DNA of 64,000 nt, taken from a virus (Duplodnaviria; Heunggongvirae; Uroviricota; Caudoviricetes). Below, in pieces: positions 4,662-61,893 of this stretch. The stretch spans positions 81,866-145,865 of IMG/VR virus record IMGVR_UViG_2595698394_000001; one strand, written 5' to 3'. The position numbers and the translations under genes are program-made. Numbering within the stretch: position 1 is the stretch's first letter; every line of letters starts with the position of its first letter. The notes beneath the pieces were generated by a model. The model ran no database searches, was not told where the DNA came from, and saw only the letters and a program-made list of their open reading frames with translations.

Positions 4662-4774
4662 TGTACTTAGTTTTAAGAGGCAAACTTACAAAAATAAAAC
4701 GACTTTAACAAATATTTTACAATATATATTTTGTTTTGTAGTTTTAATTTTGTATGTGACCTAATTTTATTTAA

Positions 4775-4808
4775 TATCTTTGGCTATGTTATGCTATTAT
4801 TGTAGCTT
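4775..4808 (+). promoter_or_regulatory. Bacteroidetes-type promoter (TTTG-N20-TAgcTTTG) for the rightward genes
   Basis: tcTTTGg..(20 nt)..TAGCTTTG immediately upstream of ATG 4829. Confidence 0.4.
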
Positions 4809-4828
4809 TGTCAAAAACCTAGAGTACT

Positions 4829-5104
4829 ATGAAAAAATTAGATTACCATGAATTTTATGAGTACATATGGATGTCCGAGGACTTTGTAGATGTAATCTCA
4901 GACAATTTCATTGATGCTGAAGAAGAATTTATACGAGAGTTTACTCTACAACTGTGGAGATTATATGATTTGAAATTTGAAAGTAATGATCCTTTATCTT
5001 CAAGCTCTATTAAAAGAGTTTTTAGTATATTATTTTCAAGTTTAGCTTTGTTCACCCCGAAGTTAGAAAGTTTAAAACCTATATCTGATAAAGGGAGATT
5101 TTAA
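4829..5104 (+). CDS. Hypothetical protein (91 aa)
   Basis: ORF track; followed by a hairpin+T terminator. Confidence 0.5.
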   Translation: MKKLDYHEFYEYIWMSEDFVDVISDNFIDAEEEFIREFTLQLWRLYDLKFESNDPLSSSSIKRVFSILFSSLALFTPKLESLKPISDKGRF

Positions 5105-5330: not shown

Positions 5331-5407
5331 CGGGTAATAGAGGAGTCTGGTTTATCTCGCTGCATTTGGGATGCAGAGCACGCAGGTTCGAATCCTGCTT
5401 ATCCGAC
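5331..5407 (+). tRNA. tRNA-Pro (TGG)
   Basis: Cloverleaf by hand: acceptor cgggtaa/ttatccg, anticodon loop tttggga, T-arm gcaggTTCGAATcctgc. Confidence 0.7.
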
Positions 5408-5486
5408 AAGTAGACTGTTATTAATTCATAGAGGACACGTACAGTAGCTTAATGCGAGATCGGTATGTCCAGCATAGAATTAACCT

Positions 5487-5558
5487 GCTGCCATCGTCTA
5501 ACGGCTAGGACCTCAGGTTTTCATCCTGGTAATCGGAGTTCGATTCTCCGTGGCAGTA
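5487..5558 (+). tRNA. tRNA-Glu (TTC)
   Basis: Acceptor gctgcca/tggcagt, anticodon loop ttttcat, T-arm cggagTTCGATTctccg. Confidence 0.65.
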
Positions 5559-5629
5559 CAGAATCTTAAGTTTAGGCTGAATTTAAGCGTTGAGTTGCTT
5601 CTCATAACAAGTACGTTAAGCTTGTATAC

Positions 5630-5702
5630 TGGAATATGGTGTAATTGGTAACACGTCTGGTTTTGGTCCAGAAGAGTGGGGGTTCGAGACCCTCTATTCC
5701 AA
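5630..5702 (+). tRNA. tRNA-Gln (TTG)
   Basis: Acceptor tggaata/tattcca, anticodon stem tctgg/ccaga, loop ttttggt, T-arm gggggTTCGAGAccctc. Confidence 0.7.
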
Positions 5703-5704
5703 CT

Positions 5705-5778
5705 GTGTTAGAAGCTAAAGTGGTCGAAGCGTCTGGTTGTGGTCCAGAAGATAGTGAGTTCGAGTCTCATTTAACACC
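5705..5778 (+). tRNA. tRNA-His (GTG)
   Basis: Acceptor gtgttag/ttaacac, anticodon loop ttgtggt, T-arm gtgagTTCGAGTctcat; no encoded G-1. Confidence 0.65.
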
Positions 5779-5837
5779 CTATGTTCATTTAAAACTAATG
5801 TTCAGTGTACATGAACATCTATAAATTGTGAACACAT

Positions 5838-5912
5838 GCAGAGGTGGGTAAACTGGTAAAGCCGCCCGATTTAGGATCGGGAGTTCTGAGGGTTCGACTC
5901 CCTCTCTCTGTA
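5838..5912 (+). tRNA. tRNA with anticodon TAG (Leu codon CUA) but a short, type-I variable loop; identity uncertain
   Basis: Acceptor gcagagg/tctctgt (2 G-U), anticodon stem cccga/tcggg, loop tttagga, T-arm gagggTTCGACTccctc. Confidence 0.5.
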
Positions 5913-5919
5913 CTTATAT

Positions 5920-6000
5920 GCCCCAATGGTGAAACTGGTTATACACGTAGCACTTAAAATGCTATGCTTAGGCTTGCAGGTTCGATCCCTGCTTGGGGTA
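5920..6000 (+). tRNA. tRNA-Leu (TAA), type II
   Basis: Acceptor gccccaa/ttggggt, anticodon stem tagca/tgcta, loop cttaaaa, 11-nt variable arm, T-arm gcaggTTCGATCcctgc. Confidence 0.65.
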
Positions 6001-6005
6001 CAAAT

Positions 6006-6078
6006 TTTCTCATAGTTTAACTGGAAAAACACAGAGTTACGGCCTTTGAGAGTAGGGGTTCGAGTCCCTTTGAGAAAA
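6006..6078 (+). tRNA. tRNA-Arg (ACG)
   Basis: Acceptor tttctca/tgagaaa, anticodon loop ttacggc, T-arm aggggTTCGAGTccctt. Confidence 0.6.
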
Positions 6079-6105
6079 CTTTATATACAAAAATAATTTA
6101 GATAA

Positions 6106-6137
6106 TTTGTTTTATCCAATTATTTGTTGTATGTTTG
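6106..6137 (+). promoter_or_regulatory. Bacteroidetes-type promoter, copy 2 of the 38-nt repeat
   Basis: Same TTTG-N20-TATGTTTG block as 5164-5195. Confidence 0.5.
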
Positions 6138-6269
6138 CCAAGAATTTAAAAAGATAAAAGTGCAACTAACAAAAACAGGCATAACAGTTATTGATAAAAC
6201 CAAGGGAGCGAGAGCTTATCTAGGGGATACTGTTATTGGCTAATTTTTAGTTAATTCAAATATAACAGA

Positions 6270-6299
6270 AACCCTCCTAGAAATAGAGAGGGTTTTTTC
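6270..6299 (+). other. Leader hairpin + T-run 5' of a tRNA
   Basis: accctc-ctagaaataga-gagggt + TTTTTT, 6 nt before tRNA 6305. Confidence 0.5.
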
Positions 6300-6304
6300 A
6301 TTAT

Positions 6305-6377
6305 GGCCCAGTAGCTAAACTGGCTTAGCACCTCCTTTGCAAGGAGAAGTATGTGGGTTCGAGCCCCATCTGGCCCA
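6305..6377 (+). tRNA. tRNA-Ala (TGC)? The 3:70 pair is C:C rather than the G:U Ala identity element
   Basis: Acceptor ggcccag/ctggccc (one mismatch), D-arm gcta/tagc, anticodon loop tttgcaa, T-arm gtgggTTCGAGCcccat. Confidence 0.5.
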
Positions 6378-6459
6378 CTAAAATTAAAACTATGGAAAAT
6401 ATTAGAGTATTTTGTAAACAGAATTAATTACCTTCGTTTAACTAATGAGGGTAACAACT

Positions 6460-6531
6460 ACCCTCGTAGCTTAATGGCAAAGCTCCTCTCTTTTAAAGAG
6501 GCGACCGCAAGATCGGTACTTGTCGGGGGTA
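6460..6531 (+). tRNA. tRNA-Lys (TTT) with a non-canonical T-loop (ATCGGTA)
   Basis: Acceptor accctcg/cgggggt, anticodon stem cctct/agagg, loop cttttaa. Confidence 0.55.
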
Positions 6532-6546
6532 CAAAAATTAGAAAAT

Positions 6547-6831
6547 ATGAAATTTAAGTTTATATTTAGGGCTTTAAAGTATCAACTACCTTTGGAAAGA
6601 TTACTTAGAAATTTTTTTATAACTGGTAATGGTTGGGGTATGTTTAGTGTACATGCCCATGTAAATAAAAAAGGAAACCCTAAAGTTGGATATAACACTT
6701 TGGAGACAGCATTAAAATCCGCTAACAGCATGCAAAAAAAGAACGGATTTCACTATTCCTCTTATATGTGTCCTAGGTGTGGAAAGTTTCACTTAGGTAA
6801 AAACAGAGATAGTATTAACAAAGGAATATAG
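6547..6831 (+). CDS. Small zinc-ribbon protein (94 aa; ...YMCPRCGKFHLG) embedded in the tRNA array
   Basis: ORF track 6520..6831 trimmed to the internal Met (MKFKFIF); CPRC...H motif; overlaps tRNA-Ile start by 10 nt. Confidence 0.35.
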   Translation: MKFKFIFRALKYQLPLERLLRNFFITGNGWGMFSVHAHVNKKGNPKVGYNTLETALKSANSMQKKNGFHYSSYMCPRCGKFHLGKNRDSINKGI

Positions 6832-6895
6832 CTCAGTTGGTTAGAGTACTTCGCTGATACCGAAGATGTCACAAGTTCGAATCTTGTTATTCCTA
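6822..6895 (+). tRNA. tRNA-Ile (GAT)
   Basis: Acceptor aggaata/tattcct, D-arm gctc/gagt, anticodon stem cttcg/cgaag, loop ctgatac, T-arm acaagTTCGAATcttgt. Confidence 0.7.
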
Positions 6896-6999
6896 CTATA
6901 AGCCTTATCGGGTTAAGGGAAGAGTCACCTGCATTCTTGGTAACAAGATAAAACCTTTAAAAGAAAGACTACACGATAGGAAGAGGTTGCCTATCATTT

Positions 7000-7073
7000 G
7001 CAGCAATCGCATAGCGGCCTATTGCACCTGACTTCCAATCAGGATCTCGTGAGTTCGAATCTCACTTGCTGCA
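7000..7073 (+). tRNA. tRNA-Gly (TCC)
   Basis: Acceptor gcagcaa/ttgctgc, anticodon stem cctga/tcagg, loop cttccaa, T-arm gtgagTTCGAATctcac. Confidence 0.75.
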
Positions 7074-7078
7074 CAAAT

Positions 7079-7152
7079 AGCGAGGTAGAGCAGCTGGTTA
7101 GCTCGCTAGGCTCATAACCTAGAGGTCGGGAGTTCGAGTCTCCCCTTCGCCA
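7079..7152 (+). tRNA. tRNA-Met (CAT), elongator-like (or Ile2); 1:72 is A:C
   Basis: D-arm gagc/gctc, anticodon stem ctagg/cctag, loop ctcataa, T-arm gggagTTCGAGTctccc. Confidence 0.65.
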
Positions 7153-7231
7153 CAAAAGTCGCCCTATGTGTGAAAGCAGCATAGGTTAAGGAGCCTGTAC
7201 ACCTCCAGCAGTTAAGCGACAACTGCTTTAA

Positions 7232-7304
7232 AGTCTATCGGTCCAGTGGAGTGGACGCTGCCCTGTCACGGCAGAGATCACGGGTTCGAGTCCCGTATAG
7301 ACTG
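7232..7304 (+). tRNA. tRNA-Asp (GTC)
   Basis: Acceptor agtctat/atagact, D-arm gtcc/ggac, anticodon stem ctgcc/ggcag, loop ctgtcac, T-arm acgggTTCGAGTcccgt. Confidence 0.75.
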
Positions 7305-7383
7305 CTAAGAGTAAAGAAACGTGATTAAGATAGGATGCCAGCTATGCTGAAGCACTAATACGCTAAAACTTTACTCTTTTTAT

Positions 7384-7457
7384 TCCCTACGTAGCTCAAT
7401 TGGTGGAGCACTGGTTTTGTAAACCAAAGGTTGTCGGTTCGAGTCCGACCTAGGGAT
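7384..7457 (+). tRNA. tRNA-Thr (TGT)? One extra nucleotide at the acceptor/D junction
   Basis: Acceptor tccctac/ctaggga (6 of 7 pairs), anticodon loop tttgtaa, T-arm gtcggTTCGAGTccgac. Confidence 0.55.
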
Positions 7458-7604
7458 CAAAATACACCTCTCGTGAAGTTTTGAAGTGTATTATAAGGTG
7501 AATGCGAAAATACTTTGCTAGCTTTGGGTGGGACATCTACACATGCAACAAAGGACAACTGTTTAGACAACCAGGTATTTTCTGTAAAGCCCACCACCTT
7601 TTTT

Positions 7605-7678
7605 ACCAGATTAGCTCAGGGGTTTAGAGCAACTCTTTTACAAGGAGAAGGTCGATAGTTCGAATCTATCATTTGGTA
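7605..7678 (+). tRNA. tRNA-Val (TAC)
   Basis: Acceptor accagat/atttggt, D-arm gctc/gagc, anticodon loop tttacaa, T-arm gatagTTCGAATctatc. Confidence 0.65.
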
Positions 7679-7689
7679 CTTTATTTTAT

Positions 7690-7762
7690 GGGGGATTAGT
7701 TTAACTGGAAAAACTATAGGCTTCTATCCTATCGAGTAGGGGTTCGAATCCCTTATCCCCTT
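7690..7762 (+). tRNA. tRNA-Arg (TCT)
   Basis: Acceptor gggggat/atcccct, D-arm gttt/aaac, anticodon stem atagg/cctat, loop cttctat, T-arm aggggTTCGAATccctt. Confidence 0.7.
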
Positions 7763-7772
7763 CAATATTTAT

Positions 7773-7846
7773 GGCCTTGTAGCTCAGTTGGTTAGAGCAG
7801 CTCACTCATAATGAGAAGGTCTCAGGTTCGAGTCCTGACTAGGCCA
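7773..7846 (+). tRNA. tRNA with CAT anticodon (Met or lysidine-Ile2), second CAT tRNA
   Basis: Acceptor ggccttg/ctaggcc (one mismatch), D-arm gctc/gagc, anticodon loop ctcataa, T-arm tcaggTTCGAGTcctga. Confidence 0.65.
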
Positions 7847-8025
7847 CAGCATAAATAATAATTAATATATTTGGTAGTTCCATTTATATTTTGTAGTATT
7901 GCAGTATGAAAACAAATTATTGTACATATAACAATTCCAATTGGTCGTTTAGTTACGACACAGGATCGGTATGTACTCTAGGCAGTGATGGATTAATAGG
8001 TTAATTCATTTATAAAGTATATAAA

Positions 8026-8060
8026 GATCCTGTTACGAAAGTAACGGGATTTTTTATTTT
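8026..8060 (+). other. Leader hairpin + T-run 5' of tRNA-Tyr
   Basis: atcctgttac-gaaa-gtaacgggat + TTTTTTATTTT, ending 1 nt before tRNA 8061. Confidence 0.5.
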
Positions 8061-8144
8061 GGGACGGTTGCTCGGCTGGAAGAGGCGCAGGACTGTAAAT
8101 TCTGTAATCCACTAGGAATGGAGGTTCGAGTCCTCCTCGTCCCA
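8061..8144 (+). tRNA. tRNA-Tyr (GTA), type II
   Basis: Acceptor gggacgg/tcgtccc, anticodon stem cagga/ttctg, loop ctgtaaa, ~15-nt variable arm, T-arm ggaggTTCGAGTcctcc. Confidence 0.7.
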
Positions 8145-8243
8145 CGACTACTAAAACAGGTGTAGGTAAGAACTTAAGATAACTTACTTATATGCGGTAC
8201 TTATGTAAAAGAAAACTGTTGGTGTGCCGAGTTGTTTTATAAG

Positions 8244-8331
8244 GAAGGTGAATGAATCGTTGGGATGAGCCTGGTCTTGAAAACCAGTGGAGGTTTAAAA
8301 GCCTTGGGGATCGTGCCCTCCGTCTTCCGCA
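8244..8331 (+). tRNA. Degenerate tRNA-Ser(TGA)-like element, possibly a pseudogene
   Basis: Anticodon arm ctggt-cttgaaa-accag and acceptor gaaggtg/cgtcttc can be paired, but the D- and T-arms are non-canonical. Confidence 0.25.
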
Positions 8332-8414
8332 AGTGCATTATAAAGCACTATAAAGTGTAATGGGTAAGATTTTTCCCAAATATACATAAATTAGTGCCTT
8401 ATATTGCACATTAT

Positions 8415-8501
8415 AGAAAGGTGTCAGAGTGGCTTATTGAGCTAGGTTGCTAACTTAGTGGAGTGAAATACCTTCCGTGGGTTCGAATCCCATCCTTTCT
8501 T
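8415..8501 (+). tRNA. tRNA-Ser (GCT), type II
   Basis: Acceptor agaaagg/cctttct, 3-bp D-stem with a long D-loop, anticodon stem ctagg/cttag, loop ttgctaa, long variable arm, T-arm gtgggTTCGAATcccat. Confidence 0.7.
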
Positions 8502-8531
8502 CTACATATCGCATATCGCAATATGGAATAT

Positions 8532-8619
8532 TCTTGAGTTGCCGTAGTTGGCCGAACGGTCCAGACTGTTAATCTGGTGAGATTTATCTCCATCGTAGGT
8601 TCGAATCCTACCTCAAGAG
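8532..8619 (+). tRNA. Type-II (long variable arm) tRNA carrying anticodon GTT (Asn codon AAC); atypical
   Basis: Acceptor tcttgag/ctcaaga (perfect), anticodon stem ccaga/tctgg (perfect), loop ctgttaa, 17-nt variable arm with gagat/atctc stem, T-arm gtaggTTCGAATcctac. Confidence 0.5.
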
Positions 8620-8763
8620 CTTAGTATAAACTGTGGGTTTACTTGCAGAAGAACAGTCGAAAGTAGAGTGTCCAAAGCTCGTGTTCTTTACCTACCGAGG
8701 GGTTTTGCGTTCAGCGTAAAATTGACCCAAAAGGAATATCGGTTAGCAAGGATACTTTTATAT

Positions 8764-8836
8764 ACTTGAGTAGCTCAGTTGGTAGAGCAGTGGTCTCCAA
8801 AACCAAAGGTCGTAGGTTCGAGTCCTACCTCTCGTG
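8764..8836 (+). tRNA. tRNA-Trp (CCA) with two mismatches in the acceptor stem
   Basis: D-arm gctc/gagc, anticodon loop ctccaaa, T-arm gtaggTTCGAGTcctac; acceptor acttgag vs ctctcgt (pairs 3:70 and 4:69 mismatched). Confidence 0.5.
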
Positions 8837-8858
8837 CTAGTGTGTAACACTATACAAC

Positions 8859-8932
8859 GGGGTTGTAGCTGAGTTGGTACAAGCGTCCGATTGAAGCTCG
8901 GAAGTACGAAGGGTCGAAGCCTTCCTTCCCCA
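8859..8932 (+). tRNA. tRNA-Phe (GAA) with two acceptor mismatches and a G54 T-loop
   Basis: Anticodon stem tccga/tcgga, loop ttgaagc, T-arm gaaggGTCGAAGccttc; acceptor ggggttg vs cttcccc (5:68 and 6:67 are T:T). Confidence 0.5.
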
Positions 8933-8987
8933 CAACGTTGCTTATTAACCACTAAAGTTAATGTTTTGTTTATAATAAGCAACAAAT

Positions 8988-9061
8988 AGTGCTGTGCCTG
9001 AGTGGTCCAAAGGAGATGATTGCAAACCTGAAAATCGTCGGTTCGAATCCGACCAGCACCT
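8988..9061 (+). tRNA. tRNA-Cys(GCA)-like; the ttgcaaa loop is present but the anticodon stem pairs poorly
   Basis: T-arm gtcggTTCGAATccgac, acceptor agtgctg/cagcacc, loop ttgcaaa identical to the canonical Cys loop; only ~1 Watson-Crick pair in the stem. Confidence 0.4.
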
Positions 9062-61162: not shown

Positions 61163-61333
61163 CATGGCATAAAAATAGAATTGTAAGTTCAAAGTAATAA
61201 AACTCATACTGACCGAAGGCGTGTAAAGAGGGTCGAGCCTCAAAATAAAAGTACACAGTAGGAGGTATAGCATTCTAGAAGGCAGGTAAAGAGCCTGAAG
61301 AGCTTACAATTCTTATTATATTAAAAGTAAATA

Positions 61334-61481
61334 TTCGGATATAGCTCAGTTGGTAGAGCGTAGCACCAATCGGGTAGTTCAATTGGTAGAACATCACACT
61401 GATAATGTGAAGGTTGTGGGTTCGAGTCCCATCCCGATTACCATAAAAGCTAAGGTCGGTGGTTCGATTCCATCTATCCGT
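61334..61481 (+). ncRNA. Split tRNA-like gene whose anticodon-loop region is interrupted by a complete tRNA-Ile
   Basis: 5' half tcggata-ta-gctc-agttggta-gagc-g-tagca-cc (61334-61366) and 3' half ccataaa-agcta-aggtc-ggtggTTCGATTccatc-tatccgt (61440-61480) pair as acceptor, D-arm, anticodon stem and T-arm around the 73-nt insert. Confidence 0.35.
61367..61439 (+). tRNA. tRNA-Ile (GAT), second copy, nested inside the split tRNA-like gene
   Basis: Perfect cloverleaf: aatcggg-ta-gttc-aattggta-gaac-a-tcaca-ctgataa-tgtga-aggtt-gtgggTTCGAGTcccat-cccgatt-a. Confidence 0.7.
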
Positions 61482-61506
61482 ACTAATAATTAATAAACAA
61501 GTAATA

Positions 61507-61893
61507 ATGGAAATTTTTAAACAAGCAGCTAAAGAGAAACTTAGATTTGAAACCTCTAAAGGTTTTGTCACAGTAGAGCAGTTATTCGACTTAAATATAA
61601 CAGCTTTAACTAGAATAATTAAAAATCTTAAAAAAGAACTTTCTAAAGATAACGATGACGAGTTATCTTTTTTAGATGAAACTTCTGCTCCAGTAAATAA
61701 AAAAGTTACTTTGCAATTTAATATTGCTAAAGAAGTTTATTTAGAGCGTAAGAAAGAAAATGAGGATGCAGCTGAAGCCTTAGCTAAAAAAGAGGCTAGA
61801 CAAAAAGCTATTGAAGAAAAAGCTAGGAGACAAGAAAAAGCTATCACAACTATCAGTGATGATGAGTTGGAGGCTATTATAAACCAAAAATAA
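61507..61893 (+). CDS. Hypothetical coiled-coil protein (~129 aa)
   Basis: ORF track 61459..61893 trimmed to the Met (MEIFKQAA), since the upstream part overlaps the tRNA. Confidence 0.45.
   Translation: MEIFKQAAKEKLRFETSKGFVTVEQLFDLNITALTRIIKNLKKELSKDNDDELSFLDETSAPVNKKVTLQFNIAKEVYLERKKENEDAAEALAKKEARQKAIEEKARRQEKAITTISDDELEAIINQK

Follow-up and report, generated by a model that had tools for sequence, protein, structure and literature searches.

The sequence analysed here is a window of 64,000 nucleotides (nt) from IMG/VR virus record IMGVR_UViG_2595698394_000001, which represents Cellulophaga phage phi4:1/phi17:2; subtracting 81,865 from a record position gives the window position. The region shows 100% identity to phi4:1, phi17:2 and their derivatives, present as seven GenBank records of 145 kilobases in the genus Lightbulbvirus. 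Between gp192 and gp193 these records annotate 'tRNA-Ile' alone, a transfer RNA (tRNA) gene for isoleucine. The flanks of this gene, however, form together the complete cloverleaf of a second tRNA, such that an entire tRNA-Ile(GAT) lies within the anticodon loop of an outer, atypical tRNA gene. A preliminary description of the locus had proposed both the outer cloverleaf and the identity of the inner tRNA, and both are confirmed by reading of the sequence, by ARAGORN and by Rfam. The nested layout it described also stands, but its coordinates were all one base off: the insert occupies 61368-61440 rather than 61367-61439, between flanks at 61335-61367 and 61441-61482.

The two tRNA genes of the nested unit

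The inner gene matches the Rfam tRNA model RF00005 at 75.2 bits (E=7e-17, model positions 1-71 of 71, threshold 29) and is called by ARAGORN as tRNA-Ile(gat) at 61368-61443. It is the top-scoring tRNA found in the window, the maximum within the phage's main tRNA cluster being 72 bits. Its anticodon loop, CUGAUAA, has 7 nt, U33, a purine at position 37 and the anticodon GAU.

Read in order, the outer 5' side (61335-61367) is TCGGATA-TA-GCTC-AGTTGGTA-GAGC-G-TAGCA-CC and the outer 3' side (61441-61482) is CCATAAA-AGCTA-AGGTC-GGTGG-TTCGATT-CCATC-TATCCGT-A. The acceptor stem, TCGGATA (61335-61341) with TATCCGT (61475-61481), is made of six pairs and a U1.U72 mismatch; the D arm (61344-61359, GCTC AGTTGGTA GAGC) and the T arm (61458-61474, GGTGG TTCGATT CCATC) are perfect; and the anticodon stem, TAGCA (61361-61365) with AGCTA (61448-61452), has four pairs and A31.A39. 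The variable loop is AGGTC (61453-61457) and the discriminator is A61482. Altogether 19 of the 21 pairs are standard, the conserved tertiary bases U8, A14, G18 G19 and T54 T55 C56 are there, with GCTCAGTTGGTAGAGC and GGTTCGATTCC present, and G15-C48 can form. The outer gene is neither contiguous nor equipped with a 7-nt anticodon loop, being interrupted by 73-76 nt and having a residual loop of 9 or 6 nt.

As a check suggested by the preliminary description, the insert was removed, and the flanks then scored as a tRNA: upon deletion in silico, ARAGORN calls a junction-spanning tRNA for 89 of 168 boundary choices at a relaxed threshold, and at all five boundaries checked at its default threshold. 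On the intact region, with introns of 0-150 nt allowed, the outer tRNA is not reported by ARAGORN and the inner tRNA alone is called. The double cloverleaf has a calculated energy of -37.4 to -39.3 kcal/mol, against -39.7 kcal/mol for the minimum free energy (MFE) structure; when folded to its MFE, the entire unit adopts a structure other than the double cloverleaf, and this fold is not significant (z=-1.0). Cofolding of the excised halves gives precisely the outer cloverleaf, with an energy of -20.9 kcal/mol (37 C) or -32.2 kcal/mol (15 C). The nested unit is identical in the seven GenBank records, which derive from two independent isolates (phi4:1 and phi17:2), and an identical unit is found in an unrelated metagenome contig, L235 (L-numbers denote IMG/VR or other genome contigs compared with the window, e.g. 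L237, L316, L230, L245 and L015).

The outer loop had been likened at first to a CAT (Met) loop. A Met(CAT) identity for the outer tRNA is not supported, as it would need a 3-base-pair (bp) stem with two mismatches and no Met-type CAU loop occurs in its relatives.

Uninterrupted relatives at the gp193 locus

The syntenic position of the outer tRNA, which ends 24 nt before the gp193 start codon, is marked by gp193. A single gp193 query gave no homologues in IMG/VR, and an alignment of homologues used as query succeeded; these homologues occur in many large phage contigs, the closest group at 44-51% protein identity. Uninterrupted tRNAs of 74-75 nt, the comparison proposed for the outer gene at the outset, are present in related genomes, in L237, L316 and L230 at the same genomic position and in L245 downstream of the gp193 homologue (Table 1). 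According to the Rfam alignments, two extra anticodon-loop bases give L237, L316, L230 and L245 a 9-nt loop (CTCAAACTT, CTTAAACAT, TTCCGAAAT and GCTAACATT, respectively), and a YAA triplet (UAA/CAA) stands at the anticodon position in most of the uninterrupted 9-nt-loop relatives. A73 and a class-I body with a 5-nt variable loop are common to the window outer tRNA and all four relatives. Position 1:72 is U1.U72 in the window, L237 and L316, U-A in L230 and G.U in L245, and A31.A39 is found in L316 as in the window outer gene. The variable loop is AGGTC in the window, L237 and L245, AGGTT in L316 and GTGTC in L230; the trailer CTA is common to the window, L237, L316 and L230, and the leader ATATT to the window and L230.

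With 61368-61440 removed exactly, the outer gene aligns gap-free to the three 75-nt relatives. In this alignment 94% of the pair cells are standard and 12 of the 21 pairs are changed on both sides, while slid versions pair at 35-44% and no shuffle equals the covariation count; every stem shows covariation. A covariance model built from L237, L316 and L230 only matches the outer D arm (61344-61359, E=3e-4) and, separately, the outer variable loop and T arm (61453-61474, E=3e-4); it does not bridge the insert and sees the inner tRNA as a generic tRNA. Because any set of tRNAs would covary, orthology rests on the common position and on rare traits. Rarity of loop lengths and motifs was counted over about 2,200 (2,228) unique phage tRNAs collected for this analysis, of which 14 have robust 9-nt anticodon loops; the window's 22-nt variable-plus-T-arm motif occurs in 2 of the 2,228, L245 being one of the two. 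The phage tRNAs with a 9-nt loop, a 1:72 pair that is weak or mismatched, and A73 constitute a small family, of which no published description was found.

Given the uninterrupted orthologues at the syntenic site, the nested state in phi4:1 is, as judged from sequence comparison, derived, a tRNA having been inserted in a pre-existing, dispensable, atypical tRNA gene. Insertion, one of several readings put forward in the preliminary description, is thus demonstrated relative to those orthologues; 'permuted tRNA', another of them, is inapplicable as the halves are in normal order. Its readings as an intron with a tRNA fold and as a split tRNA freed through processing of the inner tRNA may hold.

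Two neighbouring situations were observed at gp193 homologues. In L318 (2810-2959) an ordinary tRNA-Ile(GAT) and tRNA-Lys(TTT) occupy the same place upstream of the homologue, and the tRNA-Ile has C33 in place of U33 (loop CCGATAT). In L230 (9792-9980), directly upstream of the homologue, there is a T arm with acceptor strand (GGAGG TTCGATT CCTTAC TCAGGGC A) that carries the trailer of the window outer tRNA, A-CTAAAT, and has a perfect 7-nt partner, GCCCTGA-TA, 185 nt upstream. The 137-nt intervening stretch yielded no tRNA, no Rfam match and no significant fold. The region is possibly a further interrupted tRNA-like gene, one that holds a different insert.

Nested tRNAs in other phages

The tRNA-in-tRNA arrangement recurs in at least five further phage lineages (Table 1). 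IMG/VR was scanned with two patterns of T-loop pairs 22-50 nt apart and a third of D-arm pairs 14-24 nt apart, and each match was tested by deleting the inner tRNA and rescanning the remaining sequence. The arrangement is rare: among the T-loop-pair matches listed that contain a complete tRNA, about 5 of 126 are nested, and most others are a tRNA followed by a 3' tRNA fragment. The D-arm-pair pattern gave 20 matches in 185,579 cellular genomes, mostly partial 5' duplications. Complementarity of acceptor strands alone does not identify nesting (13 observed vs 11.3 expected). Searches with the exact sequence pattern of the outer 3' half and with a pattern for nested Ile tRNAs gave L015 as the sole nested match, the remaining matches being a tRNA-Ile followed by the start of a transfer-messenger RNA (tmRNA) gene or by other sequence. 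Across IMG/VR loci L002-L226, at least 240 T-loop pairs 22-50 nt apart were seen, most being a complete tRNA with a 3' tRNA fragment after it and many lacking a callable tRNA.

The clearest boundaries come from L435 and L437. Deletion of exactly the inner tRNA and its CCA leaves flawless 7-nt loops, CUUUUAA and CUUCUAA, and ARAGORN then calls an ordinary tRNA-Lys(ttt) and tRNA-Arg(tct). Because this deletion restores perfect outer tRNAs, the inserted unit has the boundaries of a mature tRNA, from +1 to CCA; outer bases were neither gained nor lost. Over the stretch examined, no second copy of the Lys(UUU) or Arg(UCU) isoacceptor is present in the L435/L437 arrays. Relative to L437, the CCA is changed to CCC in L045. 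L090 and L225 differ in form: a nearly perfect helix of 9-14 bp replaces the outer anticodon arm, and acceptor, D and T arms are present.

L015 is the second case within the 9-nt-loop family. Its insert lies at U/AA (the slash marks the insertion), the site well known for the intron of tRNA-Leu(UAA). All 21 of its 21 outer pairs are intact and the residual loop is non-canonical. The closest family member is L237 for the window and L245 for L015, so nested and uninterrupted members are interleaved. The inner Ile tRNAs of the window and L015 share 56% identity, less than is seen with many unrelated Ile tRNAs, and no relatives of L015 were found in IMG/VR. These inner tRNAs lend no support to common descent of the two nested units, though it may be compatible with them.

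Compared by BLAST with cultured-phage records, the L435 and L437 units gave generic half-length tRNA matches only and no counterpart, and phi4:1 is the only cultured nested example found.

Several tRNA-like oddities lie beside or resemble the nested cases. The L015 contig also carries a 9-nt-loop tRNA (4748-4821, loop ATTCTTGGC), a tRNA-Arg(TCT) with a U1.U72 mismatch (4823-4894) and a truncated tRNA-like piece (about 4915-4975, loop TTAAACAGA). In L438 (4116-4300, on the minus strand there) the 5' half of a tRNA, ending within its anticodon loop (…CCCCT CTAA), runs directly into a complete tRNA-Lys(TTT), after which no matching 3' half is found. Two metagenome-assembled genomes of Saccharibacteria (L420:160-340 and L424:3220-3400) have a complete tRNA-Thr(GGT) inside the 5' part of a tRNA-like gene; the inner tRNA-Thr is flanked by perfect helices of 10-12 bp, and the outer gene of L420 also resembles tRNA-Thr(GGT). 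A link is possible between these cases and the divergent introns that have been reported from tRNA-Thr genes of Patescibacteria.

Table 1. Features of the nested locus in the window, uninterrupted relatives of the outer tRNA, and nested tRNAs of other phages
Feature	Sequence	Coordinates	Strand	Score or basis	Remarks
Outer tRNA, 5' half	window	61335-61367	+	sequence; ARAGORN after deletion; D-arm model match; gap-free alignment to relatives	acceptor TCGGATA, U8 A9, D arm, G26, anticodon strand TAGCA, loop bases CC
Inner tRNA-Ile(GAU)	window	61368-61440	+	Rfam RF00005, ARAGORN, GenBank tRNA-Ile	positions 1-73, canonical cloverleaf, discriminator A61440
CCA	window	61441-61443	+	sequence	right after inner discriminator; encoded inner 3' end or part of outer loop
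Outer tRNA, 3' half	window	61444-61482	+	sequence; ARAGORN after deletion; model match; alignment and pair counts	loop TAAA, AGCTA, AGGTC, T arm, TATCCGT, discriminator A
gp193	window	61507-61893	+	GenBank, PHROG match	phrog_2018, function unknown; conserved downstream gene marking the syntenic position
Uninterrupted tRNA, 75 nt	L237	2126-2200		57.7 bits	about 24-27 nt upstream of gp193 homologue
Uninterrupted tRNA, 75 nt	L316	2899-2973		51.8 bits	about 24-27 nt upstream of gp193 homologue
Uninterrupted tRNA, 75 nt	L230	9595-9669		58.5 bits	about 330 nt upstream of gp193 homologue
Uninterrupted tRNA, 74 nt	L245	1354-1427		55.9 bits	about 465 nt downstream of gp193 homologue
Ile(GAU) inside member of 9-nt-loop family	L015				inner tRNA followed by CCA
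Phe(GAA)+CCA inside Arg(UCU)	L045/L436/L437	L437:2022-2185; L045:4972-5124			three samples
Asn(GUU)+CCA inside Lys(UUU)	L435	6105-6275
Arg(CCU) at tip of helix in outer tRNA-like body	L090	6612-6778			inner tRNA without CCA
Pro(UGG) at tip of helix in outer tRNA-like body	L225	590-750			inner tRNA without CCA

Insertion boundaries

Two placements of the boundaries can be compared in the window. An insert of 73 nt leaves the outer loop CC/CCATAAA, which has 9 nt, the length of the family, and matches the relatives at 3 of 9 bases. An insert of 76 nt, i.e. the tRNA with its CCA, leaves CC/TAAA, a loop of 6 nt that agrees at 5 of 6 positions with CTTAAA, the start of the L316 loop, and is three bases short. 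The 76-nt insert is favoured because CCA follows none (0/22) of the tRNA genes in the main cluster (window 5331-8933) and is only about 1% frequent in the genome (0.7-1.1% of trinucleotides in the window). It is favoured also because in L015 the inner Ile(GAU) is followed by CCA and the contig's other tRNA genes are not (0/2), and because L015 without its inner tRNA and CCA is left with TTAACATTCA, a 7/8 match to the L245 loop GCTAACATT. The inner tRNAs of nested L435 and L437 likewise end in CCA. The lack of encoded CCA in the clustered genes fits the phage's own CCA-adding enzyme (gp032, outside the window).

The only direct repeat at the insert ends is the 4-nt ACCA (61365-61368 and 61440-61443). 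A target-site duplication via ACCA would give a 7-nt loop, CCATAAA, without U33, and nothing supports it.

Proposed processing of the unit and possible fate of the outer RNA

Taken together, the sequence comparisons suggest that the locus most likely arose by precise insertion of a complete tRNA-Ile(GAU) unit into the anticodon loop of a resident atypical phage tRNA, the unit most likely having been in mature form and ending in CCA. By analogy with general tRNA biology, the whole 148-nt unit would be transcribed as one precursor. RNase P would cut at the inner 5' end, before A61368, and the inner 3' end would be cut back to the discriminator or CCA by endonucleases or exonucleases, which would yield a normal tRNA-Ile; the phage gp032 would be available for CCA addition or repair. 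Such processing of the inner tRNA would necessarily divide the outer RNA in two, a 5' piece of 33 nt and another of about 40 nt. Pairing in the acceptor stem and the anticodon stem may hold these together as an L-shaped, tRNA-like RNA of two pieces. That the outer RNA survives in this two-piece form, with a function that needs no intact loop, is tentatively favoured as a good possibility. The outer RNA is probably independent of an intact loop, and the insertion tolerated, because the loop of the family is already non-canonical and variable. Two-piece survival is further favoured because all nested cases keep full outer stems and because the elongated arm of L090/L225 would clamp the halves after excision.

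Several points weigh against this proposal. Tolerance of the insertion for want of need of the loop is something we infer. All copies of the window unit are identical, so post-insertion conservation of the outer stems is not measurable, and a recent insertion would look no different. At many other gp193 loci examined no tRNA stands at the corresponding position, which makes the outer tRNA dispensable in relatives. The residual outer loop fits the relatives by length or by sequence and never by both, so that the exact boundaries are ambiguous.

Protein content was surveyed by Pfam scans of 20 phi4:1 proteins together with the genome annotation, a search that is not exhaustive. It identified a DNA ligase (gp029), the CCA-adding enzyme gp032, and PARP/WGR and macro domains; no Rnl-type ligase, RtcB, polynucleotide kinase-phosphatase (Pnkp) or splicing endonuclease was found among the 20 proteins or in the annotation. 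The neighbouring proteins gp191-gp196 and gp180 returned no known function from searches. No promoter-like or terminator-like sites above background were found near the nested unit or between the tRNA and gp193.

The alternatives differ mainly in what becomes of the outer halves. That the flanks merely resemble a tRNA by chance, or that the unit is a sequencing or assembly artefact, is already refuted and may be set aside: the outer cloverleaf, the tRNA calls upon in-silico deletion, the fold energy and the identical copy in L235 argue that it is neither, as do its identity in seven GenBank records from two isolates, the uninterrupted orthologues at the syntenic site and the E=3e-4 matches of the relatives-only covariance model to both flanks. 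An insertion-disrupted pseudogene, in which only the inner tRNA matters and the outer halves are degraded by-products that decay with time, is the main rival, if on the doubtful side. Absence of the outer tRNA from most gp193 loci, and thus its dispensability, would be expected of it; the identity of all known nested copies fits a young event; the residual loop, without a U33 or A37 pattern, matches the relatives poorly; no RNA ligase was found in the phage by the survey above; and the 5' half of L438, joined to a complete tRNA and lacking a 3' half, is the decay expected of such arrangements. Every outer stem is nevertheless intact, the sole non-pairs, U1.U72 and A31.A39, being family traits of uninterrupted relatives. 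All six independent nested cases have complete outer stems, L015 retains its 21/21 outer pairs in spite of a non-canonical residual loop, and the long near-perfect helix of L090/L225 is unexpected from random decay.

The inner tRNA might instead act as an intron, one precursor giving two complete tRNAs: after the RNase P cut at the 5' end and a second cut after the discriminator or CCA, the halves would be sealed into an outer RNA of about 72-75 nt with the junction GUAGCACC/(CCA)UAAAAGCUA, either through transesterification or by an ATP-dependent RNA ligase of the host that works on 3'-OH and 5'-P ends. Ends of the kind left by RNase P and RNase Z are substrates for an Rnl-type ligase. The restored 7-nt loops and normal Lys(ttt) and Arg(tct) calls of L435/L437, and the want of another copy of these isoacceptors in their arrays, accord with this, as do the inner CCA of the window and L015 where 0/22 and 0/2 other tRNA genes examined have one, and the interleaving of nested and uninterrupted family members, which requires repeated gain or repeated precise loss. 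We know, however, of no such splicing pathway in bacteria or phages, encoded CCA is an anti-determinant for RNase Z in bacteria studied, none of the Rnl, RtcB or Pnkp domains turned up in the proteins surveyed, and in the window neither excision product yields a canonical loop; splicing is accordingly considered improbable here. Less probable still, and by a wide measure, is that the outer structure is a cis-acting processing or stability element with no tRNA function of its own, whether a natural 'tRNA scaffold' for the inner tRNA or a form of tRNA punctuation setting the 5' end of the gp193 mRNA. In the window, L237 and L316 the gp193 start codon does follow 24-27 nt after the end of the tRNA, this position is taken in L318 by ordinary Ile(GAU) and Lys(UUU) tRNAs, and no promoter- or terminator-like site intervenes; yet most gp193 homologues have no upstream tRNA, and the family keeps all L-shape tertiary bases and a specific loop motif, beyond what a cleavage signal needs.

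A wider reading is that phages carry an unrecognised class of interrupted tRNAs whose 'intron' is a complete tRNA with mature boundaries (+1 to CCA), either spliced by processing enzymes and ligation or representing an RNA-level accident copied into DNA. That the locus stands for a new mechanism of processing or insertion is rather unlikely, with a minor though real chance. Mature-tRNA boundaries with CCA in genomes otherwise lacking it suggest an origin by RNA ligation; one may speculate that a repair ligase joined a mature tRNA into a nuclease-broken anticodon loop and that the chimera was copied back into DNA.

Should the outer tRNA prove to be restored or to work in two pieces, the locus would represent a new bacterial route of tRNA biogenesis, one that parallels in nature both split tRNAs and the engineered tRNA scaffold. 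Should it be a fossil of RNA-level ligation and reverse transcription, it would be a record of tRNA cleavage and repair in phage-host conflict. For annotation, standard tRNA finders give the inner gene only and miss the outer genes, among them a tRNA-Lys(UUU) and a tRNA-Arg(UCU), both apparently complete, in two other phages. Both phi4:1 and its host, Cellulophaga baltica, are cultured, making this the first cultured system known to us in which the arrangement is testable.

Main tRNA cluster of the phage

The main cluster of 22-23 tRNA genes lies at window 5331-9061. Within it, an 89-nt 'Asn(GTT)' with a long variable arm (8532-8620, 44.9 bits) and a tRNA-like gene missed by ARAGORN (8988-9061, 40.1 bits) are both marked pseudo in GenBank, and a sub-threshold tRNA-Sec-like match of 29 bits is found at 8243-8328. 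The permuted 'tmRNA*' called by ARAGORN at 8054-8715 is almost certainly a false positive; it spans ordinary Tyr, Ser and Asn tRNA genes.

Comparison with known interrupted and composite tRNAs

To our knowledge, interrupted tRNA genes occur in three forms: group I introns, protein-spliced bulge-helix-bulge (BHB) introns and integrated mobile elements. Group I introns in the anticodon loops of bacterial and phage tRNAs (tRNA-Leu(UAA), tRNA-fMet, tRNA-Ile and tRNA-Arg) share with the window the place of insertion and a bacterial-type tRNA gene. They are ribozymes, whereas the window insert is a bona fide tRNA of 73-76 nt without means of self-splicing, and no group I intron family of Rfam matches 61200-61600 at E<=10. 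BHB introns of archaea and eukarya likewise can yield two functional RNAs from one precursor, one of them within the anticodon region; the Haloferax tRNA-Trp intron, of this type, carries a C/D box small RNA. Such introns need a BHB motif, which the window junctions lack, and the host is bacterial; by inspection the junctions present a 3 x 9 nt internal loop between 4-bp and 7-bp helices. Islands and prophages that integrate at the anticodon-loop sublocation of tRNA genes use the same target site as the window insert. They leave a duplicated tRNA segment and an integrase, whereas the 76-nt insert has an ACCA repeat and no integrase; no repeated tRNA segment was found and the insert holds a tRNA only. 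A tRNA within a tRNA, with mature-tRNA ends, fits none of the three forms. No tmRNA, including the two-piece kind, was called by ARAGORN or Rfam at the nested unit, the only match being a 7-bit fragment on the T arm. A full-text literature search returned no published account of one tRNA inside another; closest in subject is a paper on group I introns of Patescibacteria tRNA-Asn/Asp/Thr (PMC13011429).

Beyond interrupted genes, the outer tRNA resembles the split and tri-split tRNA genes of Nanoarchaeum equitans and Caldivirga in that it would exist, after release of the inner tRNA, as paired 5' and 3' halves, and the long helices of L090/L225 resemble the complementary leaders of split tRNAs. 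Unlike in split tRNAs, the window halves lie on one transcript, in normal order and with a tRNA between them, and no BHB or ligation machinery is evident. In the multimeric tRNA precursors of phage T4 and in bacterial tRNA operons, several tRNAs are freed by RNase P and 3' processing, but these are tandem and never nested as in the window. The layout is also like that of the engineered 'tRNA scaffold' for recombinant RNA expression, reportedly devised by Ponchon and Dardel, in which a structured RNA is placed at the tip of the anticodon stem and the tRNA body aids folding and protects against nucleases. The scaffold is man-made, however, and its cargo is not freed by RNase P, as the inner tRNA-Ile of phi4:1 is proposed to be.

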